Shown here: positions 1,170 through 31,434 of the stretch, piece after piece
Position numbering within the stretch: the stretch's first letter is position 1
Layout of the letters: the number at the start of each line of letters is the position of its first letter
Assembly (NCBI RefSeq): GCF_001457615.1
Contig: NZ_LN831024.1
Span: 4,170,001-4,202,000 of the forward strand
DNA: 32,000 nucleotides
Source: Pseudomonas aeruginosa
GTDB lineage: Bacteria > Pseudomonadota > Gammaproteobacteria > Pseudomonadales > Pseudomonadaceae
Direction: 5' to 3'
The notes under the pieces: generated by a model
The model's database searches: none
Seen by the model: only the letters and a program-made list of their open reading frames with translations
What the model was told of the DNA's origin: nothing
Position numbers and translations under genes: made by a program

Positions 1170-1189
1170 AAGACCAGCGAGAGCGCGCC

Positions 1190-5649: not shown

Positions 5650-5651
5650 AC

Positions 5652-7129: not shown

Positions 7130-7150
7130 GACAGCGCCTTCGCCCGCTTC

Positions 7151-10352: not shown

Positions 10353-10364
10353 GGGGACCTCGGC

Positions 10365-17284: not shown

Positions 17285-17597
17285 AAACCTCCGGCCGGTG
17301 CCGACGCACCCGGCCGGGACGGCTGGCCAACGCAACGCCAGCGAGCGCCCGACACCGCAGACCAGCATCGACGGCGCCGGGCGCGCTTGCGGCAGCAACC
17401 ATTCAAACGATGAATGACGCCGCAGAATCCTCTGTGATGATCGCCGCGCCAGCCGGACCTCCGCGCCTCGCCGCAGCGGCCAGGCCCCCCGACACCACTT
17501 GTCCGTGCTACCCCCGGCAGGCGTAGCCGCGGCCGCCTGCCTCGGCAAAAAGCCATCAGCCGGCACGCTTCGACGCCCCTCATGGCGCCCTTTCGCC

Positions 17598-17617
17598 AAC
17601 TACCAATTCTCATAGTT
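17598..17617 (+). promoter_or_regulatory. las/rhl-box-like 20-bp dyad (LuxR-type activator site) upstream of the biosynthetic operon
   Basis: AACTACCAATTCTCATAGTT fits the CT-N12-AG dyad, with palindromic ends AACTA/TAGTT. It is immediately followed by an AT-rich stretch with -10-like hexamers (TATCTT, TATTTT, TAAATA at about 17633-17648), at the spacing expected for a class II activator site centred near -42. Confidence 0.5.
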
Positions 17618-17714
17618 GTGAGGGGAAATTTGTATCTTATTTTAAATACCCACGAAACATATAAAAACACACACAGCGAAACACTTCGGAAAACCAACGC
17701 AAGGTGGAAGTGCA

Positions 17715-17786
17715 ATGCGTGACCGTGAATCCATTCTCATCGCTTTTCTCTCTTTCCTGACGATAAGACTGCATGGCAGCAGTTGA
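17715..17786 (+). CDS. Candidate 23-aa leader sORF (MRDRESILIAFLSFLTIRLHGSS); speculative
   Basis: The ATG at 17715 lies 7 nt downstream of a good SD, AAGGTGG (17701-17707). Hydrophobic core, with stop TGA at 17784-17786. Codons are AT3-rich and atypical for the host. Too short for the ORF track. Confidence 0.2.
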   Translation: MRDRESILIAFLSFLTIRLHGSS

Positions 17787-17833
17787 CTGCCCTTGAGTCG
17801 ACGGCACTCCGTATTTCCATAACGGTTTTTCCG

Positions 17834-17924
17834 GGCAAGGCGCCTCGACGCTTGCCGCTCGCGTGAGCGAGCCGGTGGGCGGCGGACGACTGGCAGAGCC
17901 CGGGAAGACTCGGTCGCCGTCTTC
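17834..17924 (+). promoter_or_regulatory. Three consecutive perfect 6-bp stem-loops in the operon leader
   Basis: GGCAAG (17834-17839) pairs with CTTGCC (17851-17856). GCTCGC-GTGA-GCGAGC (17857-17872) carries a GNRA-type tetraloop. GAAGAC (17904-17909) pairs with GTCTTC (17919-17924). All lie 40-130 nt upstream of the first gene. Confidence 0.3.
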
Positions 17925-17967
17925 GCGAAAAACCAAAAATCCTTCATTTAGCCGAAGAAGCCGGCAG

Positions 17968-19824
17968 ATGGACTCATTTTTTCGAAAAAAGGCGATTGCC
18001 AGAATGTCCCAGAACTCCCTGCTCGACCTGTACGCGCACCCGACGGTGGTGGCCCGCTTCAGCGAAATGGCAGCGCTTCATCCCCATCGCGAAGCCATCA
18101 GGGACCGTTTCGGAAGTGTCGACTATCGGCAACTCCTGGATAGCGCCGAACAACTTTCAGACTATCTTCTCGAGCATTATCCGCAGCCGGGAGTTTGTCT
18201 TGGAGTGTACGGCGAATATTCTCGGGAAAGCATTACCTGCCTGCTCGCCATACTGTTATCCGGCCATCACTACTTATATATAGACCTGAAACAACCGGCG
18301 GCCTGGAATGCAGAGTTGTGCCGGCAGGTCGACTGCCGCCTGATCCTCGACTGCTCGACCACGCCGACGCCCGCCAACGGTCTTCCCTGCGTCCCGGTCA
18401 GGCACCTGCCTGCCGCTCCAGCCTCGGTCGCCCGGCCATGCTTCGCGGCGGACCAGATCGCCTACATCAACTTCTCCTCGGGCACCACCGGCCGCCCGAA
18501 AGCCATCGCCTGCACCCACGCCGGCATTACCCGCCTGTGCCTGGGCCAGTCGTTCCTCGCGTTCGCTCCGCAGATGCGCTTCCTGGTGAACTCGCCGCTG
18601 TCCTTCGATGCGGCGACCCTGGAGATCTGGGGTGCGCTGCTCAACGGCGGCTGCTGCGTGCTGAACGACCTCGGCCCCCTCGACCCGGGCGTGCTGCGCC
18701 AGTTGATCGGAGAGCGCGGAGCCGACAGCGCCTGGCTCACCGCCTCGCTGTTCAACACCCTGGTGGACCTCGACCCGGACTGTCTCGGCGGCCTTCGCCA
18801 GTTGCTCACCGGCGGCGACATCCTCTCGGTGCCGCACGTGCGCCGGGCGCTGCTGCGGCATCCGCGACTGCACCTGGTGAATGGCTACGGACCGACGGAG
18901 AACACCACCTTCACCTGCTGCCATGTCGTCACCGACGACGACCTCGAGGAAGACGACATCCCCATCGGCAAGGCCATCGCCGGCACCGCGGTGCTCCTGC
19001 TCGACGAGCACGGACAGGAGATCACCGAGCCCGACCGGGCCGGGGAGATCGTCGCCTTCGGCGCCGGCCTGGCGCAGGGTTATCGGAACGATGCGGCGCG
19101 CACCCGCGCCAGCTTCGTCGAGTTGCCCTATCGCGGCCGCCTCCTGCGTGCCTACCGTACCGGCGACCGCGCTCGCTACGACGAGCAGGGCCGGCTGCGC
19201 TTCATCGGCCGCGGCGATGGCCAGGTCAAGCTGAACGGCTATCGCCTCGACCTCCCCGCCCTGGAACAGCGCTTGCGCCGCCAGCCGGGCATCCTCGACT
19301 GCGCCCTGCTGGTCCGCGAGCGCAACGGCGTCAAGCAACTGCTCTGCGCCTGGACGGGAAAAGCCGACACCAGCCCGCAGGCCCTGCTCCGCCAACTGCC
19401 CACCTGGCAGCGCCCGCATGCCTGCGTCCGGGTCGAGGCCTTGCCCTTGACGGCGCACGGCAAGCTGGACCGCGCCGCCCTGCTGCGCCGCCTGGAAGAA
19501 CCGCTGGAGCGCTGCGCCAGCGCGCTCGATCCCGACCAACGCGGCTGCGCGCAGCTGTGGAGCGAATTGCTGGGTTGCGAGGTCGGCGCCGCCGACCAGG
19601 ATTTCTTCCTCTGCGGCGGCAACTCGTTGCTCGCCCTGCAACTGGTCGCCCTCTGTCAATCGGCGGGTGCGGGAGCAAACCTGGGACTCGCCGACTTGCA
19701 GGCAAACTCGCACCTCGACCAGTTCAGCCGTCTCCTGCGCAGCCACGGCCTGGCGCCGGAGCGTCTGCTGGAACGGGCGGCGACGCCGGAGCAGCCGCTG
19801 GTGCTGTCGAGGAGCGCGGCATGA
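17968..19824 (+). CDS. Nonribosomal peptide synthetase, adenylation-PCP didomain (618 aa; 606 aa if the ATG at 18004 is used)
   Basis: Lies within ORF 17863..19824. A-domain core motifs YINFSSGTTGRPKA, NGYGPTENTT, YRTGDRARY, GRGDGQVKLNGYRL and HGKLDRAAL. The carrier motif is FFLCGGNSLLALQL. From memory it resembles the structurally characterised PA1221 A-PCP protein. Confidence 0.9.
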   Translation: MDSFFRKKAIARMSQNSLLDLYAHPTVVARFSEMAALHPHREAIRDRFGSVDYRQLLDSAEQLSDYLLEHYPQPGVCLGVYGEYSRESITCLLAILLSGHHYLYIDLKQPAAWNAELCRQVDCRLILDCSTTPTPANGLPCVPVRHLPAAPASVARPCFAADQIAYINFSSGTTGRPKAIACTHAGITRLCLGQSFLAFAPQMRFLVNSPLSFDAATLEIWGALLNGGCCVLNDLGPLDPGVLRQLIGERGADSAWLTASLFNTLVDLDPDCLGGLRQLLTGGDILSVPHVRRALLRHPRLHLVNGYGPTENTTFTCCHVVTDDDLEEDDIPIGKAIAGTAVLLLDEHGQEITEPDRAGEIVAFGAGLAQGYRNDAARTRASFVELPYRGRLLRAYRTGDRARYDEQGRLRFIGRGDGQVKLNGYRLDLPALEQRLRRQPGILDCALLVRERNGVKQLLCAWTGKADTSPQALLRQLPTWQRPHACVRVEALPLTAHGKLDRAALLRRLEEPLERCASALDPDQRGCAQLWSELLGCEVGAADQDFFLCGGNSLLALQLVALCQSAGAGANLGLADLQANSHLDQFSRLLRSHGLAPERLLERAATPEQPLVLSRSAA

Positions 19825-21083
19825 ACGTCGGTCTCTCCGCGGAGGTGCGCTACCACTGGTTCCGCGAGCACCTGGTGGTGGTCGGCGATTGGCACCGCCT
19901 GTCCCCCTCCGAGCGCGACCGCCTGCGGCACCAACCGATGCCGGATGAGGCCGCACAGTCCTTGCGCGTCGACCTGTCGCCCTGGTCCTGCGGGATGGTC
20001 TTCAGCGAGCTGCTCGGCGCCGACCTGACCCGCTTCGGCCTCTGCTACCTGGCTCCGGCCGAGGTGCCGGCATCCGACCTGACGCGCCTGGGACGGCGCC
20101 TGCGCGAAGAGTTCCCGTTGCTCGACAGCCAGGTGGACAGCGGCGCGGAAGGTTTCGAACTGGTCGTCCACGGGCGGCCCGAGGACAGCCCGGCGCTGGA
20201 AGTCGGCCCCTTCGCCGACGAAAACGCGCTCATCGCAGCGCTGCTGCAACGCCCGCATTCCCTGTTCGAGCGCGGCCTGCTGCGACTGTTCCACGGGCGC
20301 TGCGGAGGACGTGCGCGCTGGGGCGTCTGGCTGCATCACCTGGTCGCCGACGCCGACTTCGCCAGCGTGCTGCTGGCCCGCCTGGCCGTGCTCAACGCCG
20401 ACCCCACGACCGAAGCGGCGGCCCCCGAGTTCGGCTTCCTCCAGCAGCAATGGCGCCTGGAGCGCCAGCTGCGCGAGCGCAGGACCAGGCTGGAAGACTA
20501 CTGGAGCGAGCGCGGCGAGGCGTTCCGCGAACTGGCGAGCCTGCCCTGGGCGGAGCGCGCCAGACATTGCGAGGATTTCCGCTTGGCCGCCACGCCAGGA
20601 GGCGGCGAAGCCGCCCTGCTGACCCGGCTCGCCTGCGCCCTGGCTCTCGCCCTGGCCAGCCAGGGCGCCACCGGCAAGGTCCTGGCGCTGACCCCGGTCA
20701 GCCTGCGCAGTCGCCGAGGCACGGCGGTTTCCGGTTGCTGGCTGAACCTGGTGCCGCTGTTGCTGGACGCCGCGACCGCCGAGGACACCTTCGAACGACA
20801 CAGGCTCGAGGCCTTCGAGCACAGCCTGCTGCCGGCGGAGGCCATCGCCGAACGGGCCGGGCTGCGCTATGCCGACGCCCAGGTGATGATCAATGTCATC
20901 GACCAGCCATTCCGCAGCGCCGGGTTCATCCACCGGCCGACACTGAAGAGCCGCCTGCCGCTGACCCTGACCCTGGTCCGGCGCGACGACGGCGGCTGGG
21001 ACGCCAGCCTGGCCAGCCGCTTCGGCCGCGAACGGACCCTGGCGCTGGCGGCGGCCATGGCCGAGGCGCTACGCCCATGCTGA
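19821..21083 (+). CDS. Free-standing NRPS condensation-domain protein (420 aa)
   Basis: Lies within ORF 18195..21083. ATG 19821 overlaps the upstream stop (ATGA). Contains WLHHLVADADF, which is the HHxxxD(G) catalytic motif with G replaced by A. The length matches a single C domain. Confidence 0.75.
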   Translation: MNVGLSAEVRYHWFREHLVVVGDWHRLSPSERDRLRHQPMPDEAAQSLRVDLSPWSCGMVFSELLGADLTRFGLCYLAPAEVPASDLTRLGRRLREEFPLLDSQVDSGAEGFELVVHGRPEDSPALEVGPFADENALIAALLQRPHSLFERGLLRLFHGRCGGRARWGVWLHHLVADADFASVLLARLAVLNADPTTEAAAPEFGFLQQQWRLERQLRERRTRLEDYWSERGEAFRELASLPWAERARHCEDFRLAATPGGGEAALLTRLACALALALASQGATGKVLALTPVSLRSRRGTAVSGCWLNLVPLLLDAATAEDTFERHRLEAFEHSLLPAEAIAERAGLRYADAQVMINVIDQPFRSAGFIHRPTLKSRLPLTLTLVRRDDGGWDASLASRFGRERTLALAAAMAEALRPC

Positions 21084-21691
21084 TCCTGCTGCCTGACTTC
21101 ATCGGCCACCCGAGCTGCTTCCGCGGGCTGCTGGCACGCCTCGGCGCAACGGACTGCCGGCTGGTCGACTACCACCGGCTGGATGCCTACGCCAGCATCG
21201 AAGCCCTCGCCAGCCAGGTACTCGACGGCCTGGCGGAAGAACCGGACTGGCTGATCGGCTATTCCTTCGGCGGCCTGGTCGGCTACGAGATGACCCGCCA
21301 GTTGCCGGCCAGCCGCCTGCTGATGATCGACAGCCACCTGCCCTGGCCGGCCCTGCGGCGAATGCCGCCGAGCGAGCAATACCAGCGCTGGCTGAGCGCC
21401 GAGATGCGCGAATGGATCGCCCTGATGAGCGAGCTTGGCGAACTGCGCGAAGAGGTCCTGCTGCGCAATGTCGAGCTGTTCGGCCGCTGGCAGCCCCGCC
21501 ATCGCCTCGCCCGCGCCAGCTGGGTGCGTTGCCGGGACGACGCCGGCCGCGACCCGGCCGCCGAACGCTGGTGCGACCTGATCGAGCGGCTCGACACCTT
21601 CCCCTGCGAGCGTCCGCACCACCTGGCCCTGCAGGACCCGGCGGTGATCGATTTCATCGTCCACACCGTCAGCAAGGAGTCCGTCCAATGA
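21077..21691 (+). CDS. Type II thioesterase / alpha/beta hydrolase (204 aa)
   Basis: Lies within ORF 20450..21691. ATG 21077 overlaps the upstream gene by 7 nt. GYSFGG nucleophile elbow. Its size and context match an NRPS editing or releasing thioesterase. Confidence 0.8.
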   Translation: MLILLPDFIGHPSCFRGLLARLGATDCRLVDYHRLDAYASIEALASQVLDGLAEEPDWLIGYSFGGLVGYEMTRQLPASRLLMIDSHLPWPALRRMPPSEQYQRWLSAEMREWIALMSELGELREEVLLRNVELFGRWQPRHRLARASWVRCRDDAGRDPAAERWCDLIERLDTFPCERPHHLALQDPAVIDFIVHTVSKESVQ

Positions 21692-22566
21692 AACACTATC
21701 GGCAGGTGGTATCCCCGCAATTGCGCCAACAGGCGCTGGACTGGATCCTCGCCGCGGCGCAGCGGCCGGACCCGGCGCTGGAACCGGAATTCGACATCGC
21801 CGACGACGAGCGCCGCGAGGCGAAGAAGGTGCGCAACCTGCACCGCCACGACCCGCTCTTCTGGGACGACTGGTTCGCCCGCTCCGGGCTCGACGCGCTG
21901 GTCCGCGACCATCTGCGCAAGCCGCGCCTGCTGCGCCACGCGGCGTTCATCAAGCGCCACGCCGACGAGTCCTACATCCCGCTGCACCAGGACATCGCGC
22001 TATGGGAGAAGCGCTACGAAAGCGCGCAGACCTTCTGGGTCGCCCTGACCCCGTCGCGGAACGACAACGGTGGGATGTTCTATTACCCCGACGACCGCAC
22101 CATCTTCCCCCACGAGTTCGACCTCGCCTACCCGATGTTCAAGTGCATCGACCTCCAGGCCAACGGCATTTCCCGCGAGCAACTGGTGGATGCCGAGCTG
22201 GACGCCGGCGATGTCCTGGTCTGGCCCGCCCGCACCGCACATGGCAGCCACAACAACCGCAGCGGCCAGCTGCGCATCGGCATGCCGATCGTCTTCGTCG
22301 AGGACGACGAATTCCACCAACTGAATCGAGAGGACAGCATGAAAACCTGGATCGCTTCCAACCTGAAAAGCGTGTTCCCGGACGAGGCAATCACCGAGGA
22401 CAACCTCGACCACTATCTTCCGCAGCTGTGCGACTACTCGCTGAAGATGGTCACCTTCCTCGCCCGTTTCTCCCGCCAGTTCGGTCATGCGCCGAAGATC
22501 CACGACTTCATCAGGGAGCCGCGGCTGGCGACGCTGTCGGCCTCGGACGCGGGAGCGAGACGATGA
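21688..22566 (+). CDS. PhyH-family Fe(II)/2-oxoglutarate dioxygenase with C-terminal carrier-protein-like domain (292 aa)
   Basis: Lies within ORF 21412..22566. ATG 21688 overlaps the upstream stop (ATGA). HxD facial-triad motif (IPLHQDIALW) and distal His (ARTAHGSHNN). The last 75 aa (22339-22563) read like an ACP/PCP: ...NLDHYLPQLCDYSLKMVTFLARFSRQFGHAPKIHDFIREPRLATL. Confidence 0.75.
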   Translation: MKHYRQVVSPQLRQQALDWILAAAQRPDPALEPEFDIADDERREAKKVRNLHRHDPLFWDDWFARSGLDALVRDHLRKPRLLRHAAFIKRHADESYIPLHQDIALWEKRYESAQTFWVALTPSRNDNGGMFYYPDDRTIFPHEFDLAYPMFKCIDLQANGISREQLVDAELDAGDVLVWPARTAHGSHNNRSGQLRIGMPIVFVEDDEFHQLNREDSMKTWIASNLKSVFPDEAITEDNLDHYLPQLCDYSLKMVTFLARFSRQFGHAPKIHDFIREPRLATLSASDAGARR

Positions 22567-23930
22567 TCCGGGTCATCGACTGCACCCTGCGCGAGGGGTG
22601 CCAGGCCCGCCAGTGCAGCTTCGACAGCGCGCAGTCGGTCCAGCTGGCGAGGGAAATCGCGGCGCTGGGGGTGGATATGATCGAGTGCGGCCACCCGCGG
22701 ATTTCCGCGGACGAACGCGAGCGGGTACGCGCCGTGGTGGCGGCGGTTTCCACGCCGGTGCTGGCCCACGCCCGGGCGCGCCGGGAGGATATCGACGCGG
22801 TGCTGGAAACCGGTGCCCAGTGGGTCGGGCTGTTCGCCTCGATCAACGCGATCTCGCTGGAAACCAAGTTCAAGGGCATGAACCGCGAGGAGGTGCTCGA
22901 ACTGTTCCACGACGCGATCCGCTACGCCCGCGAACGCGGCCTGCGGGTCCGGGCCACGGTGGAAGACGCCGCGCGCACCTCGGTCAGCGACCTGGTCAGC
23001 ATGATCGCCACCGCGCGCGACGCCGGCGCCGATCGCATCTGCTTCGCCGACAGCGTCGGCATCCTGCTGCCGGACGAGACCTTCGACGTGCTCTCGCTGC
23101 TGCGCCACGAGTTCCCCGACGTGGTCTTCGAGTACCACGTGCACAACGACCGCGGCCTGGCCCTGGGCAACACCCTGGCGGCGATCCAGGCCGGGGTCCA
23201 GTGGCACTCGGCGAGCTGCAACGGGATCGGCGAACGCGCCGGGATCACCGACACCTTCCAGTTGCTGACCCTGCTGCATACCAAGTTCGCCGCCGACCGC
23301 TTCAACCTGAAGAACGTCCTCGCGGTCTCCGAGCTGGTCGAGGCGCACAGCCGGATCAAGCGTTCACCGATGCACCCGGTGGTCGGCGAGAACGCCTTCG
23401 TCCATGTCGCCCGCCTGCACCAGTTGGCCATGCAGGAAAACCAGGACGCCTACAGCGCCTTCGATCCGGAACTGATCAACGGCCGCGTCTCGCTGCAACG
23501 CTACACGCCGATGCACCGCCAATCCCTGTTCCTCACGCCTTTCGAGAAATCCGCCAGCGAACTGAAGTACCACCGCCACGGCCCCGGCAAGCGCTTCGTC
23601 ATGCTCGACCGGCGCCTGCTCGACGGCTCGCCGTTCTACTTCATCGCCCGCCAGTTCCACGACGTCGGCGACGGCGGGCCGGGCCACGTCGACAGCCACG
23701 TGCACAACTGCGACTCGGTGTTCCTGTTCCTCGGCAGCGACGAGGACTACCGCGGCCTGGAGGTGGAAGTCCTGCTCGGCGGCCAACTGCGCCGTTTGCA
23801 GAGCCCGGCCAGCGTGTTCATCCCCGCCGGCGTCGAGCACAGCTACCGCTACCTCGGCGGCAGCGGCACCTACATCAATTTCGTCCACAAGGGCGATTAC
23901 CACGAGAGCCTACTGGAGATTACCCAATGA
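22563..23930 (+). CDS. HMGL-like (2-isopropylmalate/homocitrate/citramalate synthase family) aldolase fused to a C-terminal cupin domain (455 aa)
   Basis: Lies within ORF 22002..23930. ATG 22563 overlaps the upstream stop (ATGA). Catalytic motifs are IDCTLREG and YHVHNDRGLALGNTLAAIQAG. The C-terminus (about 23570-23927) has cupin motifs GHVDSHVHNCDSVFLFLG and IPAGVEHSY. Confidence 0.85.
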   Translation: MIRVIDCTLREGCQARQCSFDSAQSVQLAREIAALGVDMIECGHPRISADERERVRAVVAAVSTPVLAHARARREDIDAVLETGAQWVGLFASINAISLETKFKGMNREEVLELFHDAIRYARERGLRVRATVEDAARTSVSDLVSMIATARDAGADRICFADSVGILLPDETFDVLSLLRHEFPDVVFEYHVHNDRGLALGNTLAAIQAGVQWHSASCNGIGERAGITDTFQLLTLLHTKFAADRFNLKNVLAVSELVEAHSRIKRSPMHPVVGENAFVHVARLHQLAMQENQDAYSAFDPELINGRVSLQRYTPMHRQSLFLTPFEKSASELKYHRHGPGKRFVMLDRRLLDGSPFYFIARQFHDVGDGGPGHVDSHVHNCDSVFLFLGSDEDYRGLEVEVLLGGQLRRLQSPASVFIPAGVEHSYRYLGGSGTYINFVHKGDYHESLLEITQ

Positions 23931-24673
23931 AGCAGTTCGACAAGCACGCAGACGCCTACAACGTGGTCCGCGGCAAGATCGCCTATCCGGATTCGCTCTA
24001 CCGCAACCTCGCCGAACGCGCCCCGGCACGCGAAGCGGCGCTGGACATCGGCTGCGGCAACGGCGTCTCGACCGTCCGCCTGCAACCCTGGTTCCGCTAC
24101 GTGGAAGGCAGCGACCTGGGCGAGGCGCTGATCGCCAAGGCCCGCGAGAACTACCCGGAGATCCGCTTCAGCGTGTCGCCGGCGGAAACCTTCGCGCCGC
24201 AACGCCGCTTCGACCTGGTCACCAGCGCCACCTCCTTCTACTGGATGGACCGCAAGCAGGTGCTGACGCGCATGGCCGACTGGCTGACCCCCGGCGGGCT
24301 GTTCTGCGCCTACAAGTACGACTTCCCGATCGCCTACGGGCCGCTGCGCGACTTCATCGAGCACGAACTGGTGAACAAGTGGGCCAAACACCGTGATCCG
24401 CGCCTGACCCGCTATGACGACACCCTGGAGATCATGGGCAGTTGCCCGCACCTGCGCGACTGCCGCCGCGAAGTGTTCGCCAACATCATCTTCCTCAGCC
24501 CGGAGGAGGTCGCGCTGTTCTTCCTCTCCACCAGCTACGTGACCCGCTACATCGAGCAGGAAGGCGGCGAAGACTACGCCGACCGCTTCATCGCCGCGGT
24601 GCGCGAGATCGAGAGCGCGCCGCAGGTGGCGGTGAACTTCGACATCCACGCCTTCACCGCGCTGAATCGCTGA
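23927..24673 (+). CDS. Class I SAM-dependent methyltransferase (248 aa)
   Basis: Lies within ORF 22487..24673. ATG 23927 overlaps the upstream stop (ATGA). Motif I is ALDIGCGNGVST. Confidence 0.85.
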   Translation: MKQFDKHADAYNVVRGKIAYPDSLYRNLAERAPAREAALDIGCGNGVSTVRLQPWFRYVEGSDLGEALIAKARENYPEIRFSVSPAETFAPQRRFDLVTSATSFYWMDRKQVLTRMADWLTPGGLFCAYKYDFPIAYGPLRDFIEHELVNKWAKHRDPRLTRYDDTLEIMGSCPHLRDCRREVFANIIFLSPEEVALFFLSTSYVTRYIEQEGGEDYADRFIAAVREIESAPQVAVNFDIHAFTALNR

Positions 24674-24682
24674 GGAGCCGGC

Positions 24683-26161
24683 ATGAGCAGCCTCCCCGTA
24701 CCCGTATCGCTCGACAGCACCCTCCGCCATCTCGGCAGCGCCGACCCGCGGCGGCCGTTCCTGATCGACGCCCGCGAGCCGGAGCGACCGCTGGAATACA
24801 CCTGGGGCGACGCCGACCGCCAGGTCGATGCCCTCGCCGAGCAGATCGCCGCGCATGCCTGCCGCAGTGTCGGCGTGCTGCTCGACAACAGCTACCGCAA
24901 CCTCTGCCTGATCTATGCGGTCATGCGCGCGGGCAAGCATCTGGTGCTGATCGATCCCGAGTGGGGGGAGGCCGCGAAGCAGGCCATCGTCGACGAGATG
25001 CGCCTGGACGCGCTGGCCAGCGAACATCCGCTCAAGGGCGCGCTGGCCGGGCTGCGCCTGGCGCTGGACTTCGAGCGCAGCGCGACGCGCCGGCTCGACC
25101 GCGCCGCGCACAGCCACATGATCCTGTTCACCTCGGGCACCACCGGCCAGCCGAAAGGCATCGAACTCAGCCAGCAGGCCATGCTCCATGCCTACCGCAT
25201 CGGCCGCGACTGCCTGGGCATCGGCGAGCACACGCGCTCCGGTTGCTTCTACCGGATCAGCGGCCTGGGCATCCTCGGCATCAATTTCCTCTTCCCGCTG
25301 CTGTACGGCGGCAGCGCGGTGCTCCTGCCGCTGCACTGCTGGGCCGACAGCGAAGGCTTCTGGGAATGCGTGGAACGCTTCGGCATCAGTTTCCTCTACC
25401 TGGTGCCGCCGGTGGTCAACCACATGGTCAAGGAAGGCTCCCCGCCGCCGCGCCGCTTGCCGTTGCAGCGCCTGCTCTGCGTCGCCGGCTCGGCGCGCCT
25501 GGACGCCGACCTGCAGGCGGCCTTCCAGCGCGACTACGCGGCGCTGGCGAACATCTACGGCCTCAGCGAGTGCGGCTTCGCCTTCCTCTTCGGCAAGCGT
25601 CGCGGCGATGCGTTCGACAACTCGGTGGGACCTGCCATCGGCCTGGAACTCAAGCTGACCGACCCCGACGGCCGCCCGCTGGAGGGCAGCGGCGAACGCG
25701 GGCGCCTGTGGGTGCGCACGCCGAGCCTGTTCTCCGGCTACGTCAACCGCCCCGACCTGACCGCCCAGGTGCTCGAGGACGGCTGGCTGAACACCCAGGA
25801 CCTCGCCTACTTCGACGAGGACCGCTGCGTGCACGTCCTCGGCCGTTGCGACGGCACCATCAACAAGGGCGGCAACCTGTTCCACCTGAATGAATGCGAA
25901 AGGGCGCTCAACGGCCTGGACGAGGTGATCGACGTCTGCTGCCTGAAGGTCGACTGCCCGCTCTATGGCGAAGACTATGTCGCCGTGATCCACACCGCGC
26001 CGCAGGTCGAGTTCGCCTTCCTGCCCTGGCTCCAGCAGCAGCTCGGCACCCTCCGCGCGCCACAGCGCGTGGTGCTGTCGCACCAGGCCCTGCCGCTGAA
26101 CGGCGCCGGCAAGCACGACCGCCGTGCGCTCGCCGCCCTGCTGCAACGGGAAGCCTCGTGA
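24683..26161 (+). CDS. ANL-superfamily AMP-dependent synthetase/ligase (492 aa)
   Basis: ORF track 24683..26161. GAGGAG SD in the 9-nt gap upstream. Motifs FTSGTTGQPKGI, YGLSECG, WLNTQDLAYFD and NGAGKHDRRAL. No fused carrier domain. Confidence 0.9.
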   Translation: MSSLPVPVSLDSTLRHLGSADPRRPFLIDAREPERPLEYTWGDADRQVDALAEQIAAHACRSVGVLLDNSYRNLCLIYAVMRAGKHLVLIDPEWGEAAKQAIVDEMRLDALASEHPLKGALAGLRLALDFERSATRRLDRAAHSHMILFTSGTTGQPKGIELSQQAMLHAYRIGRDCLGIGEHTRSGCFYRISGLGILGINFLFPLLYGGSAVLLPLHCWADSEGFWECVERFGISFLYLVPPVVNHMVKEGSPPPRRLPLQRLLCVAGSARLDADLQAAFQRDYAALANIYGLSECGFAFLFGKRRGDAFDNSVGPAIGLELKLTDPDGRPLEGSGERGRLWVRTPSLFSGYVNRPDLTAQVLEDGWLNTQDLAYFDEDRCVHVLGRCDGTINKGGNLFHLNECERALNGLDEVIDVCCLKVDCPLYGEDYVAVIHTAPQVEFAFLPWLQQQLGTLRAPQRVVLSHQALPLNGAGKHDRRALAALLQREAS

Positions 26162-27759
26162 TGTGCGGCATCCTCGGTTACGTCGGCACCGGTTTCAGTG
26201 TCTCGCGCTTCGCCGGAGCGCTACGCCTGCTGGCCCATCGCGGCCCGTTCGGCGAGGGCATCGCGGCCCTGCCGAACGGCGCCATCGGCATGACCCGCCT
26301 GCCGATGTCCGGCGCCGCGGCGGTACCGCTGCCGCCGCAGGAGGGCCAGCGGCGGGTCGCCTACAACGGCGAGGTCTACCAGGCCGGCTGCGAAATCCAT
26401 GGCGAGATCCGCCTGCTGCTCGACGGCTTGCAGCGCGGGGTACTGCCGGACGGCATGTACGCCCTCGCCAGCTGGGACCCGCAGACCCGGCAATTGACCC
26501 TGCTGCGCGACGAGTTCGGCATCAAGCCGCTGTACTACAGCTACCAGCCCGAGCGCGGCCTGCTGGCCTTCGCCTCCGAGCCGCGGGCGCTGCTGCACCT
26601 GCTCGGCGGCGCCCGCGCCGACGCCGAGGCGATCGCCCAGGTGGTCGCCGCCGGCGTGCCGCTGGAAGGCCAGACCCTGTTCCAGCAGGTCCGTCTGCTG
26701 CTGCCCGGCGAGGTGTTGCGCTTCGATCTCTCCCAGGAGCGTCCGCGCCTCTGCCAGCGCCAGCGGCTGGCCACCGCCCCGGCCAGCGAGGTGGACAGCC
26801 TCGACGAGCAGCTCGGCGAAACCCTCGAACGCTGCCGCCAGACCTTCCGCCCCTGCGCCCTGCTGGTCAGCGGCGGGGTCGATTCCAACCTGCTCGGCAG
26901 CTACCTGGACCCGCAGTTGCAACGCTTTCACCTGTGCCTGGAAGGCGACGAGGAAAGCCTGCTGCCACACCCTCGGCTGCAACGCTTCGAGCTGCGCCAG
27001 GAAGCCTTCATGCCGCTGCTGCGTCGCGCGGTCGGCAACTTCGGCGGGGCGACACGGATGTCCAGCCTGCTGATGTACCAGCGCCTGGCCGACGGTATCG
27101 GCGAGCAGGGCTATCACTGCGTGCTTCTCGGCGAAGGCGCCGACGAACTGTTCTGGGGCTACCCGCGCCATCTCGAACTCTGGCGCCGGCGCGACGCACC
27201 GGAACCGCGGCGCTTCGCCGCCGCCTGGTTCGGCGAGTACCGGCGCAAGGCCGCGCTGCTGGCGGAACCGGCGGGCCGACGGGTCGCCGAGCGGATCGAG
27301 GAACTCGCCCACGAGGCCCTCGGCCAGGGCCTCGAGGCGGCGATCGGCCAGTTCGACCTGCACTACTCGCTGGAGCCGCTGCTGCGCCGCGCCGACCATC
27401 TGCTGATGTCGCGCACCATCGAAGCGCGCACCCCCTACCTGCATGGCGCCCTGGCGCAGCGCGCCGGGCGCCTCCAGCGGATCGTCGGCGACACCGCCAA
27501 GGCACCGCTGGTGGCGCTCCTGGAGCAGCGCGAGAAACGCTGGCAGGCGCAGCCGAAACGGCATTTCCGCCTGCCGTTCGAACGTTGGCCGCAGGCCCTC
27601 GGGGAAATGCGCCGGCACCTCGCCGAACGCCTGCCGGCGCTCCACGACCTCGGCCTGGAAGGCCTGGATGCACCGAGCGTCGCGGCGCTGCCCGGCGACC
27701 AGTTGTTCACCCTCACCACCCTGTCGCTCTGGCAGCAGGAATACGGAGCCTCGCTATGA
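26161..27759 (+). CDS. Asparagine synthetase B-like glutamine-dependent amidotransferase (532 aa)
   Basis: Lies within ORF 25894..27759. ATG 26161 overlaps the upstream stop by 1 nt (TGATG). N-terminal nucleophile MCGILGY and PP-loop LLVSGGVDSNLL. Confidence 0.9.
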   Translation: MCGILGYVGTGFSVSRFAGALRLLAHRGPFGEGIAALPNGAIGMTRLPMSGAAAVPLPPQEGQRRVAYNGEVYQAGCEIHGEIRLLLDGLQRGVLPDGMYALASWDPQTRQLTLLRDEFGIKPLYYSYQPERGLLAFASEPRALLHLLGGARADAEAIAQVVAAGVPLEGQTLFQQVRLLLPGEVLRFDLSQERPRLCQRQRLATAPASEVDSLDEQLGETLERCRQTFRPCALLVSGGVDSNLLGSYLDPQLQRFHLCLEGDEESLLPHPRLQRFELRQEAFMPLLRRAVGNFGGATRMSSLLMYQRLADGIGEQGYHCVLLGEGADELFWGYPRHLELWRRRDAPEPRRFAAAWFGEYRRKAALLAEPAGRRVAERIEELAHEALGQGLEAAIGQFDLHYSLEPLLRRADHLLMSRTIEARTPYLHGALAQRAGRLQRIVGDTAKAPLVALLEQREKRWQAQPKRHFRLPFERWPQALGEMRRHLAERLPALHDLGLEGLDAPSVAALPGDQLFTLTTLSLWQQEYGASL

Positions 27760-28715
27760 CAACCATCCATCGTCGCCCCGCGCCCTGGCGGGGCAACGCG
27801 GTGTTCTGCGCTTCGGCCGCTTTCGCCGCCGGCCTGGAAACGCTGTTCGCGCGCCTGCTGGAGCGGCGTCCCGCGGATAGCGCGGAGGCTCTCCTGCGCC
27901 AGCGCCTGCATCACGAACTGGAGCATGGAAGCGGCGTGCTGCTGCACGATTCCGCGCTGCTGCGCGGACTCGCCGAGGACGAATTCCAGCGGGTGTTCCG
28001 CGCATTCTGCCAATGGCTGGGACGCACCGTGGCGATCAACCGCAACGGCGAGTACCTCAAGGAAGTGCGCGACCTCGGCCTGCGCGACGCCCGCGACGCG
28101 CCGCAGCGCGGCCACCTGACCAGCCAGGAACTGGCCTTCCACTCCGATCGCGCCGACCTCACGGTGCTCGCCTGCTGGTCGCCGGCACGCCGGGGCGGCG
28201 CCTTCCGCATCCGTTCCTCGGCCGACGTCCTCGCCACCCTGGAAGCCGCCAATCCGGCCTGGCTGCCCCTGCTCGGCCAGCCGATCCCCCACGACCTGCG
28301 CGACGAAGGCGACGCCGACTACGCGCTGGTGCCGCTGCTCACGGAAACCCCGCGGACCTTCGTCTTGCGCTATATCCGCAAGTTCAACGAATCGGTGACG
28401 CGCCACGGGCTAAGCCTCGCCCCGCAGGTGCGAAGCATGCTCGACGGCCTGGACGAGGCGATCGAACGCGCCGACGGCTATGCCGAACTGGACTTCAGCA
28501 AGGGCATGCTGGTGCTGGTGAACAACCACACCACCCTGCACGCGCGCACCGAGTTCAGCGACGACGAGCGGCAGCGCCGCTGCCTGCTGCGCTGCTGGCT
28601 GAGCAGCGAGTTCACCCGCGAACTGCCGGAAAGCTTCCTGCCGCTGTTCCACCAGGTAGCCGCCGGCAGCCTGCGCGGCGGCATCCGTCCCCTCGCCCAG
28701 GAGCCCCGCCCGTGA
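27756..28715 (+). CDS. TauD/TfdA (clavaminate-synthase-like) Fe(II)/2-oxoglutarate dioxygenase (319 aa)
   Basis: Lies within ORF 26124..28715. ATG 27756 overlaps the upstream stop (ATGA). HxD motif LAFHSDRAD, distal His in NNHTTLHARTEF, and a downstream Arg (RRCLLRCW). Confidence 0.8.
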   Translation: MTTIHRRPAPWRGNAVFCASAAFAAGLETLFARLLERRPADSAEALLRQRLHHELEHGSGVLLHDSALLRGLAEDEFQRVFRAFCQWLGRTVAINRNGEYLKEVRDLGLRDARDAPQRGHLTSQELAFHSDRADLTVLACWSPARRGGAFRIRSSADVLATLEAANPAWLPLLGQPIPHDLRDEGDADYALVPLLTETPRTFVLRYIRKFNESVTRHGLSLAPQVRSMLDGLDEAIERADGYAELDFSKGMLVLVNNHTTLHARTEFSDDERQRRCLLRCWLSSEFTRELPESFLPLFHQVAAGSLRGGIRPLAQEPRP

Positions 28716-29941
28716 GCGACAACACCTTCAGCGTGCAACGCTTCCGCGCCCTGCCGACGGAAATCCACGTGATGCTCGTCGGTACGCTGCTGACCCGCGG
28801 CGCCTACTTCATGGTCTGGCCGTTCCTGGCATTGCTGCTGTGGCGCGAGTTCCGGCTGTCCGCCAGCGCCATCGGCCTGCTGCTGGCGCTGGCGACCGTC
28901 TGCGGCGCGCTCAGCGGCATCTACACCGGCTGGCTGTCGGACCGTTTCGGGCGCAAGCGCCTGATCTTCTTCGGCACCAGCCTCAGCGGGCTTTCCTTCG
29001 TGTTGCTGGGCTTCAGCGGCCAGCCGCTGTCCTACGGACTGGCGATCTCCGGGGTGAGCATCGGCTGCGCCCTGCTCGAATCCAGTTGCAAGGCGCTGAT
29101 CGGCGACCGCGTCGAGGATCGCCGCTCGCGGGAACTGGCGCTCTACTGCCGGTACTTCCTGATCAACCTCGGCGCCGCCCTCGGCCCGCTGATCGGCCTG
29201 ACTCTCGGCGTCGCCGCCCAGGCCGGCACCTTCCTGGTCACCGCGCTGGTCTACTTCTGCTACGGCCTGCTGCTCTGGCGCCTGCTGCACCACCTCGAAC
29301 TTAAGCGGCGCAGCCTTGCCCCGCGATCCTCGACGGGGTTCCTCGAAGCCTGCCTGAGCATGGCCCGGCATCGCGCCTTCACCCTGCTGTTGCTGTGCAA
29401 CATGCTGGCCGCGCTGATCTACGCCACCTTCGATTCGACCCTCGTGCAGTACCTCACCCGCAGCGGTCTGCCCGACGTGGTCAACAGCATCGCCCTGCTG
29501 GTGACCATCAACGCGCTGACCATAGTGGTCGCCCAGTTTCCCCTCCTCCGCCTGCTGGAAAACACCGGCACCGGCGGCCGCCTGATGCTCGGCATGCTGC
29601 TCATGCTCCTGGCCCAGCTAGGCTTCGCCTGGACCCCGGTGACCCTGTTCGCCGGCCTGGCGCTGGCCACGGTGGTGCTCAGCCTCGGCGAACTGATCGT
29701 GTTCCCGACCTTCAGCGTGGAGGTCGACCAACTGACCCCCGACGACTTGCGCGGCAGCTATTTCGGCGCGGCCAATCTCTACAGCCTCGGCACCGCGCTG
29801 GCACCGCTGTACGGCGGGATCATGCTCGACCATGCCGGCAGCCAGGCGCTGTACCTCGGCCTGGCCGCGCTGTGCGGGGTGATCATGCTGCTGCAGGTCG
29901 GCGCGGTCGGCCTGCGCCAGGCCGAGCGGGCCGGCGGATGA
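28712..29941 (+). CDS. MFS transporter, probable exporter of the pathway product (409 aa)
   Basis: Lies within ORF 28013..29941. GTG 28712 overlaps the upstream stop (GTGA). About 12 hydrophobic segments. MFS loop motif GWLSDRFGRKRLI. Confidence 0.85.
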   Translation: MSDNTFSVQRFRALPTEIHVMLVGTLLTRGAYFMVWPFLALLLWREFRLSASAIGLLLALATVCGALSGIYTGWLSDRFGRKRLIFFGTSLSGLSFVLLGFSGQPLSYGLAISGVSIGCALLESSCKALIGDRVEDRRSRELALYCRYFLINLGAALGPLIGLTLGVAAQAGTFLVTALVYFCYGLLLWRLLHHLELKRRSLAPRSSTGFLEACLSMARHRAFTLLLLCNMLAALIYATFDSTLVQYLTRSGLPDVVNSIALLVTINALTIVVAQFPLLRLLENTGTGGRLMLGMLLMLLAQLGFAWTPVTLFAGLALATVVLSLGELIVFPTFSVEVDQLTPDDLRGSYFGAANLYSLGTALAPLYGGIMLDHAGSQALYLGLAALCGVIMLLQVGAVGLRQAERAGG

Positions 29942-30573
29942 GCGGCGCGCTGCTGGTCTCGGGATTTTTCCTGCGCCGCTCCGCCTGGTCCGTGGAAGGC
30001 GCCGGCTGGCGAAGCTGCGACCATCTGCGCGACGCGCCCGGATGCGACCTGGCGCATTGGCTGGACCAGGCCGCCGCCACGCTGGCCGGCGAGGAGCGGG
30101 TGATACTCTGCGGCCACAGCTTCGGCGGCTACCTGGCGCAATGCCTGGCGGCCCGCCTGGGCGAGCGCGCCGCGCACCTGTACCTGTTCAGCGCGCTGGT
30201 CAGCGAGGGCGGCGGCGCGCTGGAAAGCTACCAGGACAGCGGCCAGGACAATCTCCTCGGGCTATGCCGCCTCGACCCGCTCGGAGGGCGGGTCCGCCTG
30301 GAAGACCGCGCCGGCTTCCTCGAACTGCTCGGCGCCGAGGTGCCGACCAGCGCCAGCGAACCCGCGCAATTGCTGATCGACTCGCCGCGGCAGGTTCGTC
30401 CAGCCTGCCCGGTCACCTACGTTGTGGCGGCCGCCGACCGGCTCAGCCCGCCGCCGCTGCAACGTACCTTCGCCCACCGCCTGGACGCGCGAGTGCGGGA
30501 ATACCCGGGCGGGCACCTCGCCGCACTGGCGGACCCGCGCTTCCTTCGCGCCCTTATCGAATCTAATAATTAG
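29938..30573 (+). CDS. Alpha/beta-fold hydrolase (211 aa), last gene of the operon
   Basis: Lies within ORF 29395..30573. ATG 29938 overlaps the upstream stop (ATGA). GHSFGG nucleophile elbow. The C-terminal codons become AT-rich (gaa tct aat aat tag). Confidence 0.7.
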   Translation: MSGALLVSGFFLRRSAWSVEGAGWRSCDHLRDAPGCDLAHWLDQAAATLAGEERVILCGHSFGGYLAQCLAARLGERAAHLYLFSALVSEGGGALESYQDSGQDNLLGLCRLDPLGGRVRLEDRAGFLELLGAEVPTSASEPAQLLIDSPRQVRPACPVTYVVAAADRLSPPPLQRTFAHRLDARVREYPGGHLAALADPRFLRALIESNN

Positions 30574-30691: not shown

Positions 30692-31390
30692 ATGATCGAA
30701 CGTCGTCCCTTCGACCGTCTGGGCCATGCCAACCACGGCTGGCTGAACGCGCGTCATCATTTTTCCTTCGCCGACTACTATGATCCGGAGCGCGAGGACT
30801 GGGGCCGCCTGCGGGTCTGGAACGATGACGAGATCGCCGCCGGCAGCGGCTTCCCGCCGCACCCGCACCGCGACATGGAGATCATTACCTATGTCCGCGA
30901 AGGCGCGATCACCCACCAGGACAGCCTGGGCAACAAGGGCCGCACCGAGGCCGGTGACGTGCAGGTGATGAGCGCCGGTACCGGCATCGTCCATTCGGAG
31001 TACAACCTGGAAGCCGAGACCACCCGGATCTTCCAGATCTGGATCATCCCGGACCGCCGCGGCGACCAACCGCGCTGGGGCTCCAAACCGTTCCCGAAGG
31101 CCGAGCGCGACGGTCGTTTCGTCACTCTCGCCAGCGGCGACGAGCAGGACAGCGAAGCGCTGCACATCCGCGCCGACGCCGAGGTCGCCGCGGTGACCCT
31201 GAAGGCCGGCCAGAGCGCCGAGTACGCCCTGGAAAACGGTCGCCGCGCCTACCTGGTGCCGGCCACCGGCAGCATCGAGGTCAACGGCGTGCGCGCCGAG
31301 GCCCGCGATGGCCTGGCGGTACGCGACGAACCGACCCTGAAGGTCACCGCCCTGGAAGACAGCGAAGTGCTGCTGGTGGAAGTGGCCTGA
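30692..31390 (+). CDS. Pirin-family (bicupin) protein (232 aa)
   Basis: ORF track 30692..31390. Pirin signatures GWLNARHHFSFADYYDP and GFPPHPHRDMEIITYVREG. Confidence 0.9.
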   Translation: MIERRPFDRLGHANHGWLNARHHFSFADYYDPEREDWGRLRVWNDDEIAAGSGFPPHPHRDMEIITYVREGAITHQDSLGNKGRTEAGDVQVMSAGTGIVHSEYNLEAETTRIFQIWIIPDRRGDQPRWGSKPFPKAERDGRFVTLASGDEQDSEALHIRADAEVAAVTLKAGQSAEYALENGRRAYLVPATGSIEVNGVRAEARDGLAVRDEPTLKVTALEDSEVLLVEVA

Positions 31391-31395: not shown

Positions 31396-31434
31396 CAGCC
31401 CCTCGCCCCCACGGGCGAGGGGCTGCTTTCGTTG
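31396..31434 (+). terminator. Rho-independent terminator after the pirin gene
   Basis: A perfect 13-bp GC-rich stem: CAGCCCCTCGCCC (31396-31408), loop CCAC, GGGCGAGGGGCTG (31413-31425), followed by CTTTCGTT. Confidence 0.7.

Follow-up and report, generated by a model that had tools for sequence, protein, structure and literature searches.

The orphan PA1221-PA1211 operon of Pseudomonas aeruginosa: a homocitrate-synthase-like condensing enzyme fused to a cupin, and a possible route to a small acylated valine

We have analysed a stretch of 32,000 nucleotides from Pseudomonas aeruginosa (contig NZ_LN831024.1, positions 4,170,001 to 4,202,000 of the forward strand; hereafter the window), which carries an eleven-gene biosynthetic operon. 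The G+C content of the window is 63-76%, and its third-position GC (GC3) frame plots give a clean series of plus-strand coding regions from about 18000 to 30570; together with stop-codon and start mapping, they define eleven plus-strand genes at 17968-30573. With 1404 bits, the product of the first gene matches the protein deposited in the PDB as 'PA1221' (4DG8/4DG9) along the full 618 residues, which identifies the window as the PA1221-PA1211 region of P. aeruginosa. This region lies on the reverse strand in PAO1, and the same identity had been given in an earlier reading of the same letters made without database searches (the sequence-only reading). Protein families were assigned with Pfam and NCBIfam, and structural relatives were sought through PDB searches, AlphaFold2 models and Foldseek. 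The families recognised by Pfam and NCBIfam were AMP-binding plus PP-binding, thioesterase, PhyH, HMGL-like, class I methyltransferase, AMP-binding, Asn_synthase/GATase, TauD, MFS_1 and alpha/beta hydrolase. The genes, their domains and one upstream feature are the following:

17968..19824, + strand: PA1221, a non-ribosomal peptide synthetase (NRPS) didomain made of an adenylation (A) domain and a peptidyl carrier protein (PCP) (PDB 4DG8/4DG9; Pfam AMP-binding, PP-binding)
19821..21083, + strand: PA1220, a free-standing, highly divergent protein of the condensation (C) domain superfamily (HHLVAD motif; Foldseek)
21077..21691, + strand: PA1219, a type II thioesterase-like alpha/beta hydrolase (Pfam Thioesterase 7.5e-9; GYSFGG)
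21688-22566, + strand: PA1218, whole gene, PhyH domain plus carrier tail
21688..22332, + strand: PA1218, N-terminal PhyH-family Fe(II)/2-oxoglutarate (Fe/2OG) oxygenase (Pfam PhyH 1.1e-36)
22333..22566, + strand: PA1218, C-terminal carrier-protein domain with the serine motif YSLKMV (a separate gene in relatives)
22563-23930, + strand: PA1217, whole gene, synthase domain plus cupin
22563..23492, + strand: PA1217, N-terminal homocitrate-synthase-like DRE-TIM Claisen condensing enzyme (Pfam HMGL-like 7.2e-60)
23550..23930, + strand: PA1217, C-terminal metal-binding cupin resembling the MarH epimerase (profile and fold matches; HVDxHxHxxD...H)
23927..24673, + strand: PA1216, a class I methyltransferase dependent on S-adenosylmethionine (SAM) (Pfam Methyltransf_25, Methyltransf_11)
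24683..26161, + strand: PA1215, a stand-alone ANL adenylating enzyme, predicted to act on a non-amino carboxylic acid (Pfam AMP-binding 3.8e-44)
26161..27759, + strand: PA1214, an AsnB-family glutamine-dependent amidotransferase (Pfam Asn_synthase 2.8e-37, GATase_7)
27756..28715, + strand: PA1213, a TauD/clavaminate-synthase-family Fe/2OG oxygenase (Pfam TauD 5.3e-19)
28712..29941, + strand: PA1212, an MFS transporter, probably an exporter (Pfam MFS_1 1.7e-40)
29938..30573, + strand: PA1211, a small alpha/beta hydrolase with a GHSFGG motif (Pfam Abhydrolase_6 4.5e-8)
17597..17618, + strand: a possible las/rhl-box-like operator, the 22-bp dyad CAACTACCAATTCTCATAGTTG (inverted repeat CAACTA-N10-TAGTTG, CT-N12-AG core)

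Nine of the ten gene junctions are overlaps of 1-7 nt, of the ATGA, GTGA or TGATG type, and the tenth is a gap of 9 nt, in full agreement with the eleven same-strand genes and virtual lack of intergenic DNA described in the sequence-only reading. Overlaps of stop and start codons of this kind are the mark of a translationally coupled operon and not of a chance run of open reading frames (ORFs). Position 17598, which that reading had given as the start of the cluster, is not a gene start and falls on the dyad. All eleven of its protein assignments hold, with the refinements described below. The locus is not a new discovery: published papers already cover its existence, regulation and orphan status, and a 2024 preprint gives its antiSMASH class as "NRPS-like/betalactone". 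The literature up to July 2026 describes PA1211-1222 as an orphan NRPS cluster without an assigned product, which bears out the statement that no metabolite had been attributed to it, and a literature search by enzyme combination found no characterised homologous cluster. What we have not found stated in the papers that we consulted is (i) the homocitrate-synthase pocket of PA1217, (ii) its MarH-like cupin, (iii) the mobile carrier domain and (iv) a three-layer architecture built on a widespread core.

PA1217 joins a condensing domain to a cupin in a single chain. When its N-terminal 326 residues were searched alone against the PDB, the best match was the homocitrate synthase 6KTQ (5.4e-59), followed at a distance by the best isopropylmalate synthase (IPMS; 2.4e-38) and by citramalate synthase (3e-37). 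In NCBIfam, the top model for PA1217 is an IPMS subfamily model (1.2e-80), marginally ahead of homocitrate synthase (1.8e-77), and the protein scores far below the equivalog cutoffs of all the LeuA models and also of homocitrate synthase. Alignment with the Schizosaccharomyces pombe homocitrate synthase pairs R10, E11 and Q14 of PA1217 with R43, E44 and Q47, E41 with E74, H69 with H103, R130 with R163, T132 with S165, E134 with E167, and E190, H192 and H194 with E222, H224 and H226; the metal ligands by this alignment are E11, H192 and H194, a Glu/His/His site. In the S. pombe enzyme, the C5 carboxylate of 2-oxoglutarate is bound by H103, R163 and S165. At the positions of H69, R130 and T132, the aligned IPMS 6E1J has Ile, Glu and Gly. 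All 76 full-length relatives aligned, which come from many phyla, have His at position 69, Arg at 130 and Thr or Ser at 132, and the residues of the metal site and the catalytic Arg/Glu of the TIM barrel (R10, E11, E134, E190, H192 and H194) are kept in 75-76 of the 76. The conserved His/Arg/Thr triad points to a dicarboxylic 2-oxo acid as substrate: 2-oxoglutarate or one of its near derivatives. Such a substrate would also explain why PA1217 uses up acetyl-CoA and yields no product in an isopropylmalate synthase assay (2019 preprint). PA1217 is, in addition, bound by the phage LUZ19 protein Qst (2019 preprint). The "isopropylmalate-synthase-like aldolase fused to a cupin" of the sequence-only reading is thus right as to the cupin fusion, but its synthase part is closer to homocitrate synthase.

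The LeuA_dimer domain is absent from PA1217 by Pfam, and the C-terminus is a cupin instead. These roughly 125 residues are undetected by Pfam; in the alignment of the relatives, H375, D377, H379, H381, D384, H426 and several Arg and Tyr residues are conserved, with the putative metal-binding and Arg residues kept in at least 93%. A cupin profile found two small cupins in the PDB, 6J4B (2.4e-6) and 7EQK (1.8e-5), and the AlphaFold2 model (mean predicted local distance difference test score, pLDDT, 74) has these same two cupins as its top Foldseek matches, namely MarH (5e-8) and 7EQK, a non-heme iron epimerase/lyase. MarH, the maremycin epimerase, inverts the beta-carbon of a beta-methyl 2-oxo acid. 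By analogy, the fusion of a metal domain that handles 2-oxo acids to a domain that condenses them would make sense. MarH and 7EQK are small metal-dependent cupins of about 120-130 residues and the best sequence and fold matches of this domain; however, identity is only about 25%, and the cupin of PA1217 differs from both in being fused to a Claisen condensing domain. The likeness to homocitrate synthases of the LysS/NifV type (6KTQ, 3IVS, 2ZTJ) has similar limits: the DRE-TIM fold, the Glu/His/His site and the His/Arg/Ser(Thr) triad are common to both, whereas PA1217 carries a catalytic-looking cupin at its C-terminus, is fused to a carrier in some lineages, and is encoded in a secondary-metabolite operon without homoaconitase or dehydrogenase.

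A second element that the comparison with relatives brings out is the tail of PA1218. The Pfam PhyH match spans residues 7-197, and the metal triad is of the HxD type (HQD) and not the HxA/G of halogenases; the tail that follows is undetected by Pfam in the P. aeruginosa protein. ORF analysis showed that in Xenorhabdus and Serratia the PhyH ORF ends at about residue 213 and is followed by a separate carrier ORF of some 75 residues, and in Chromobacterium the called gene at the same position carries Pfam PP-binding. The carrier serine motif reads HS(L/M)KMV in these three genera versus YSLKMV in P. aeruginosa. Judged from these separate ORFs, the "carrier-like tail" of the sequence-only reading is a genuine carrier protein. 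Carriers appear in other arrangements as well: in 5 loci from Alpha- and Betaproteobacteria and a Chthoniobacterales metagenome-assembled genome, the synthase-cupin ends in a carrier with the classical (V/L)DS(I/L) motif, and all five encode an ANL ligase; in Streptomyces the carrier is fused to the C domain. We would argue from these alternative fusions that PhyH, synthase-cupin and C domain all handle a carrier-tethered intermediate. The PhyH-carrier fusion of P. aeruginosa, and the free carrier beside PhyH in its relatives, further suggest that the tethered intermediate is oxidised by the Fe/2OG enzyme.

The GTDB species representatives, some 186,000 genomes, contain 360 relatives of the synthase-cupin, and full-length fusions are widespread. 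Identity to PA1217 is 80% in Serratia, 74% in Xenorhabdus, 59-66% in Chromobacterium, Burkholderia and Acinetobacter, about 47% in Streptomyces and Kitasatospora, about 40% in the Bacillus cereus group and 40-43% in Cyanobacteria. Partner genes were counted by tblastn of the eleven P. aeruginosa proteins against 68 synthase-cupin loci of at least 15 kb, a search that misses divergent copies (a Streptomyces locus, L084, scored no methyltransferase yet has two methyltransferase-like genes). An AsnB homolog was found near the synthase-cupin in 40 of the 68 loci, a TauD homolog in 38 and both in 36; AsnB, TauD and PhyH occurred together in 29, an ANL homolog in 21, a methyltransferase homolog in 16, and C-like plus thioesterase genes in 3. 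The full operon, with its order kept, is present in Xenorhabdus stockiae, Xenorhabdus sp. BG5, Serratia rubidaea and Chromobacterium phragmitis. Rugamonas has an intermediate version without the NRPS layer (KAS III, AsnB, ANL, PhyH, hydrolase, TauD, methyltransferase and a synthase-cupin-carrier), and the Streptomyces locus combines TauD, a hydrolase, a PCP-C protein, PhyH, the synthase-cupin, a weak methyltransferase and AsnB with an A domain, an aconitase-family protein, an ATP-grasp protein, an MFS transporter and a methyltransferase. At the other end stands Acinetobacter rudis (L086, 1-12910), where the synthase-cupin, AsnB and TauD are alone, preceded by a citrate synthase. This trio directly adjoins a dapdiamide-type set, namely a pyridoxal-phosphate enzyme (PALP) plus an ornithine-cyclodeaminase-like protein (OCD), which are the diaminopropionate pair, an ATP-grasp ligase, a second ligase that bears a DdaG_C domain, an AsnB of 609 aa and a transporter of the EamA type, and the set and the trio may be one larger cluster.

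On this gene-content comparison the cluster is layered: (i) a core of synthase-cupin, AsnB and TauD, spread across many phyla; (ii) a second layer of ligase, carrier, PhyH, methyltransferase and hydrolase; and (iii) a third layer, the valine A-PCP, C and thioesterase genes, restricted to P. aeruginosa, Xenorhabdus, Serratia and Chromobacterium, with C-like homologs also in Chimaeribacter. Because AsnB and TauD accompany the synthase-cupin even where ligase and carrier are absent, these two enzymes probably act early, on the free acid.

Other relatives show further contexts or damaged copies. Synthase-cupin homologs of about 40% identity in Bacillus proteolyticus (L061, 4118-13018), other members of the B. 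cereus group, Thermoactinomyces and Brevibacillus (L048-L074) lie among genes for a fatty-acid desaturase, two ThiF-family proteins, DUF441, alpha/beta hydrolases and a stand-alone C domain; AsnB, TauD and PhyH partners were not detected in these loci, and this gene context suggests a second, unrelated use of the synthase-cupin. In Xenorhabdus bakwenae SF857 (L001/L005, 5638-18022) only the PA1217-PA1211 half is present, with the methyltransferase split into ORFs of 129 and 114 aa and with primase/AlpA and integrase genes on the flanks, while other Xenorhabdus species carry the full 11-gene version; this copy looks like a degraded or mobile one. In another P. aeruginosa record, NZ_CP131792.1 (260670-285626, L089; deposited as an 847-kb 'plasmid'), phage-like genes abut a shortened PA1215 homolog of 1044 nt (locus 379-10406), to which the PA1221-PA1216 half is not adjacent, and the operon of that strain appears to be interrupted by a prophage or a rearrangement.

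The three NRPS-layer proteins are recognisable to very different degrees. PA1221 has its A domain at about residues 32-505 and its PCP at 529-589 (Pfam AMP-binding 7.9e-55, PP-binding 2e-6), and carries the FDAAT (A4) and GGNSL motifs of an A domain and a carrier; that it had been crystallised and prefers valine, as the sequence-only reading stated, is confirmed by the 4DG8/4DG9 match and by published work, in which valine is the residue activated. PA1219 is a thioesterase of the alpha/beta-hydrolase-fold families PF00975 and PF12697, with a Pfam match above cutoff. PA1220 had been called a free-standing C domain on the strength of HHLVAD, which lies at residues 172-177 (20334-20351). That motif stands, but the sequence-level evidence for a C domain is weak: Pfam Condensation scores E=0.013, below cutoff, NCBIfam gave no stronger support, a four-sequence profile had no match in the PDB, and BLASTP against the Streptomyces PCP-C protein of a related locus gave no match either. 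By hhalign, PA1220 and the Streptomyces PCP-C proteins of related loci align at E=0.017 with HHxxxD in register. The AlphaFold2 model, built from a six-sequence alignment, is poor (pLDDT 51, predicted template modelling score 0.41), yet all 50 of its 50 best Foldseek matches in the PDB are proteins with C, E or X domains of the condensation superfamily, the best being the chain-releasing C domain 6CGO (6e-9), with the free-standing SgcC5 and CmnI also among them. On the predicted fold, PA1220 is probably a very divergent C-superfamily enzyme; homologs were found, in the loci compared and in database searches, only in P. aeruginosa, Xenorhabdus, Serratia and Chimaeribacter.

As regards the tailoring enzymes, PA1216 has BioC (3.5e-13) and Tam (1.1e-11) as its best NCBIfam matches, all far below cutoffs, and has been shown experimentally to bind SAM and S-adenosylhomocysteine. 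PA1215 matches NRPS A domains and oxalate- and malonyl-CoA ligases in the PDB with similar strength. In a hand alignment with PA1221, it has Gly in place of the A4 Asp that binds the alpha-amino group, so that PA1215 should activate a plain carboxylic acid. For PA1214, the start proposed in the sequence-only reading (GTG 26158) is replaced by ATG 26161; the protein then begins MCGILG, with Cys first after Met, carries the PP-loop SGGVDS, and is the same 532-residue product annotated in a RefSeq record. Its best PDB match is the hydroxyamidotransferase 7YLZ (TsnB9, trichostatin; 8.7e-14), followed by AsnB 1CT9 (7.6e-9), and given TsnB9 as the best solved relative PA1214 may form a hydroxamate and not an amide, although no hydroxylamine-donor genes are evident. 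PA1213 matches only FrbJ (5EQN, 6.2e-22) and 7N7V (2.2e-19) in the PDB at E<=0.1, and a HMMER search placed it in a mid-sized family (30 clusters at E<1e-30) that gave no functional lead. Residues 532-850 of an 850-residue database representative, P0139, are identical to PA1213; in the assembly or strain behind this entry, AsnB and TauD appear to have been fused by read-through at the ATGA junction. PA1211 may, from its family, be a (methyl) esterase or a second thioesterase, and has homologs at the same operon-end position in Xenorhabdus, Serratia and Chromobacterium.

Upstream of the operon lie genes for a LysR regulator and an MltA lytic transglycosylase, and then a 680-bp AT-richer gap. 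The low G+C extends over 17285-18250, that is, these 680 bp plus about the first 90 codons of PA1221, with a GC3 of 0.5-0.65 versus about 0.9 elsewhere. A scan of this region for sigma-70-like promoters, terminators and Rfam families found none. The dyad lies about 370 bp 5' of the first ATG of the operon and its geometry is that of a las/rhl box. Across the window, however, 97.5 occurrences of the minimal CT-N12-AG pattern would be expected and 75 were counted, and since a pattern without enrichment is common by chance the dyad alone is weak evidence and marks a candidate operator only. Quorum-sensing control itself, mentioned in the sequence-only reading, is documented: a PA1221 promoter-gfp fusion needs both RhlR and PqsE (2024 preprint), and induction of the operon by acyl-homoserine lactone has been reported. 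Besides quorum sensing, RpoH and opioids have been described as inducers, and knocking out PA1216 attenuates P. aeruginosa in Caenorhabditis elegans. In Burkholderia glumae (L002, 7653-12507), an FA_hydroxylase gene, a synthase-cupin and a TauD gene whose product is 59% identical to PA1213 are followed by a transposase, and about 600 bp upstream, on the opposite strand, lies a LuxR-type regulator gene (Autoind_bind plus GerE); this is possibly a second quorum-sensing-linked case, or a truncated cluster.

At the other end of the operon, a pirin-family gene (PA1210, 30692-31390) begins 119 nt past PA1211, with no terminator in the gap between the two, and a strong terminator-like hairpin lies 3' of it, at 31396-31425. 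None of the related loci compared has a pirin gene, and for this reason we leave PA1210 out of the system: it is possibly co-transcribed with the operon, and its membership in the pathway is unlikely.

The protein families, the carrier domain, the homocitrate-type pocket, the operon structure, the regulation, the activation of valine, the binding of SAM and the use of acetyl-CoA come from our observations or from published work, and on them a pathway can be projected. The synthase domain of PA1217 would join the acetyl unit of a thioester to 2-oxoglutarate, or to a similar dicarboxylic 2-oxo acid, and so form a homocitrate-like 2-hydroxy-tricarboxylate, and its cupin would bind and enolise, epimerise or otherwise edit the 2-oxo acid or the product. 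The three carboxylates would then be told apart by one enzyme each: PA1214 would turn one into a carboxamide at the expense of glutamine, PA1216 would methylate another to an ester, and PA1215 would adenylate a third and load it as a thioester on the carrier domain of PA1218. The PhyH domain of PA1218 would oxidise the tethered acyl group, with PA1213 providing a second oxidation. PA1221 would load valine, PA1220 would join the acyl group to it, and PA1219 would release the N-acyl-valine; PA1211 would strip the methyl ester or proofread, and PA1212 would export the product. The likeliest product would then be a small valine derivative, N-acylated with an amidated, oxidised, possibly methyl-esterified or beta-lactonised hydroxy-tricarboxylate. 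The small, heavily tailored amino-acid/keto-acid hybrid foreseen in the sequence-only reading fits everything that we have found. Overall, we put the probability that PA1221-PA1211 is an RhlR/PqsE-activated operon making a small, exported acyl-amino acid, and not a peptide, at about 40%.

Several points weigh against this reading: (i) every step of the pathway beyond the protein assignments is inferred. (ii) The order of the steps and the carboxylate that each enzyme modifies are guesses, and the order deserves less belief than the reading as a whole. (iii) The triad of PA1217, as a sequence feature, argues for a free distal carboxylate on the substrate and does not identify 2-oxoglutarate itself. 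(iv) PA1220, which would form the amide bond, is only weakly recognisable as a C domain. (v) In published thermal-shift experiments PA1216 gave no shift with valine esters and non-significant ones with organic-acid salts, and, its likeness to carboxyl methyltransferases being generic and below cutoff, it may be a C-methyltransferase instead of a carboxyl O-methyltransferase. (vi) About 28 of the 68 loci, mostly from Bacillota and cyanobacteria, have no partner genes at the thresholds used, so that the synthase-cupin must also serve other pathways.

The core trio invites a wider proposal, which we make tentatively and with rather more doubt than belief: that it is an uncharacterised cross-phylum cassette for a new class of building block, an amidated, oxidised hydroxy-tricarboxylate derived from 2-oxoglutarate and acetyl units. 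The block would possibly be a glutamine-mimicking electrophile, such as a beta-lactone or an epoxy-amide, and P. aeruginosa would couple it to valine under RhlR/PqsE control to give a virulence-associated metabolite.

Among the alternatives, the one that survives best, unlikely as we consider it, is a beta-lactone route after the logic of cystargolide and belactosin. Here PA1216 would transiently methylate the carboxylate on the carbinol carbon, PA1215 would serve as a beta-lactone synthetase for the beta-hydroxy acid instead of loading a carrier, PA1211 would remove the methyl ester, and the lactone acid would be joined to valine as an electrophilic warhead. The resemblance to the cystargolide/belactosin systems (CysA-G, BelH/I/R) is one of gene content: a malate-type synthase (CysA), a SAM methyltransferase (CysG), an ANL enzyme of about 490 residues (CysF, with 491 aa against the 492 of PA1215), an alpha/beta hydrolase (CysE), an MFS transporter (CysB) and valine, which cystargolide also carries, are common to both. 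This combination of genes accounts for the 'betalactone' part of the antiSMASH label. Moreover, a homocitrate-like product is a beta-hydroxy acid, and in the related locus of Streptomyces a protein of the aconitase family and an ATP-grasp ligase are encoded as well. The likeness is not one of orthology, however. PA1216 matches CysG (9FCD) at E=4.5e-4 and over residues 28-128 only, a generic Rossmann/SAM-binding core, and CysF (8RA0) is not among the best 60 of the 71 PDB matches of PA1215, whose best matches are the same oxalate- and malonyl-CoA ligases that were used as comparators for CysF; on these comparisons orthology with the cystargolide enzymes was rejected and the parallel kept as an analogy only. 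CysA, in turn, is a true IPMS paralog, whereas the P. aeruginosa synthase is of the homocitrate type and fused to a cupin. Coupling in cystargolide and belactosin proceeds through an ATP-grasp enzyme or an amide-bond synthetase, but Pfam finds no ATP-grasp among the 11 operon products, which have the C domain and the A-PCP instead. The carrier domains, the C domain, AsnB and the two oxygenases would all be left unexplained.

Less likely again is a glutamine-mimic warhead of the dapdiamide kind. The acid would first lose water to give an unsaturated di- or tri-acid; PA1214 would amidate this, and after tethering an Fe/2OG enzyme would epoxidise or hydroxylate it, so that an electrophilic amide carried on valine would target glutamine-using enzymes. 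The dapdiamides of Pantoea agglomerans are small acyl-amino-acid antibiotics with valine as a building block, and the dda set has the same enzyme types: a stand-alone ligase for a dicarboxylic acid, an AsnB-like amidotransferase, an A-T protein, a TauD-type oxygenase for a tethered substrate, a thioesterase and an exporter. For DdaD and DdaC, A-T tethering and Fe/2OG oxidation of a tethered substrate, respectively, are described in the literature. The A. rudis trio adjoining a dda-type set with a DdaG_C-domain ligase, and the description of the cupin relative 7EQK as an epimerase/lyase, point the same way. Nevertheless, the adjacency in A. rudis may reflect two separate clusters; PA1215 has AMP-binding only by Pfam and lacks DdaG_C; the window holds no diaminopropionate genes (PALP/OCD pair), and no dehydratase was identified in the operon. 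Dapdiamide synthesis also starts from fumarate, whereas the P. aeruginosa acid would be made by a dedicated synthase-cupin, and the operon has no ATP-grasp ligase but has a C domain and a second carrier. When PA1213 was searched by tblastn against plasmids, the Pantoea dapdiamide cluster was not found, the hits being an unrelated Pantoea cluster and a P. aeruginosa record.

With a similarly low likelihood, PA1216 would C-methylate the 3-position of the 2-oxo acid, the cupin would epimerise it and the synthase would condense it, in a maremycin- or streptonigrin-like sequence without any methyl ester. The closest relatives of the cupin, MarH and the epimerase/lyase 7EQK, fit this scheme, since MarH itself works together with a SAM-dependent C-methyltransferase whose substrate is a 2-oxo acid. 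Moreover, the gene for the methyltransferase lies directly 3' of the synthase-cupin in Pseudomonas, Xenorhabdus, Chromobacterium and Streptomyces. However, a methyltransferase was detected in only 16 of the 68 loci (by a tblastn search that overlooks divergent copies), the families that PA1216 matches best, though weakly, are those of carboxyl methyltransferases, and the terminal alpha/beta hydrolase of the operon suits the removal of an ester. This alternative is compatible with the N-acyl-valine scheme.

That PA1217 is a true isopropylmalate synthase using 2-ketoisovalerate, so that both halves of the product would come from valine metabolism, is highly improbable: it agrees with the PGAP/Pseudomonas annotation as 2-isopropylmalate synthase, with the slightly better NCBIfam score of the IPMS subfamily and with the valine preference of the partner A domain, but the pocket residues are of the homocitrate-synthase type, a cupin replaces the LeuA regulatory/dimerisation domain, and the published assay saw acetyl-CoA consumed without product. 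Least credible of all, and rejected on the PDB searches, are the two analogies drawn in the sequence-only reading, to isonitrile lipopeptides (ScoA-E, Rv0096-0101) and to tabtoxin/clavam beta-lactams, for although the families overlap superficially (ligase, carrier, thioesterase, TauD, AsnB, methyltransferase, MFS) and RefSeq names PA1213 a 'clavaminate synthase family protein', the signature enzymes are unmatched: PA1213 matches no ScoE structure at E<=0.1, PA1219 and PA1211 have the alpha/beta-hydrolase fold whereas that of ScoD is the hotdog fold, PA1214 retains the glutaminase Cys that beta-lactam synthetase and CarA have lost and matches neither of them in the PDB at E<=0.001, and the operon encodes no glycine-adduct logic and no source of a beta-amino acid. 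As analogies, the logics of dapdiamide and cystargolide would fit the operon better than either.

Secondary-metabolite clusters are few in P. aeruginosa and most have been solved; PA1221-PA1211 is still an orphan in this major pathogen. The present analysis narrows the search for its product. PA1217 would be best examined with acids of the 2-oxoglutarate type rather than with the keto acid of valine, the tail of PA1218 can be treated as a real carrier, and the compound to look for would be a valine conjugate of an amide-bearing, C7-type hydroxy-tricarboxylate. The simpler core loci of other bacteria offer a route to the building block itself, and, if that block does prove to be new, the operon would stand for a widespread family of pathways and not for a single curiosity.

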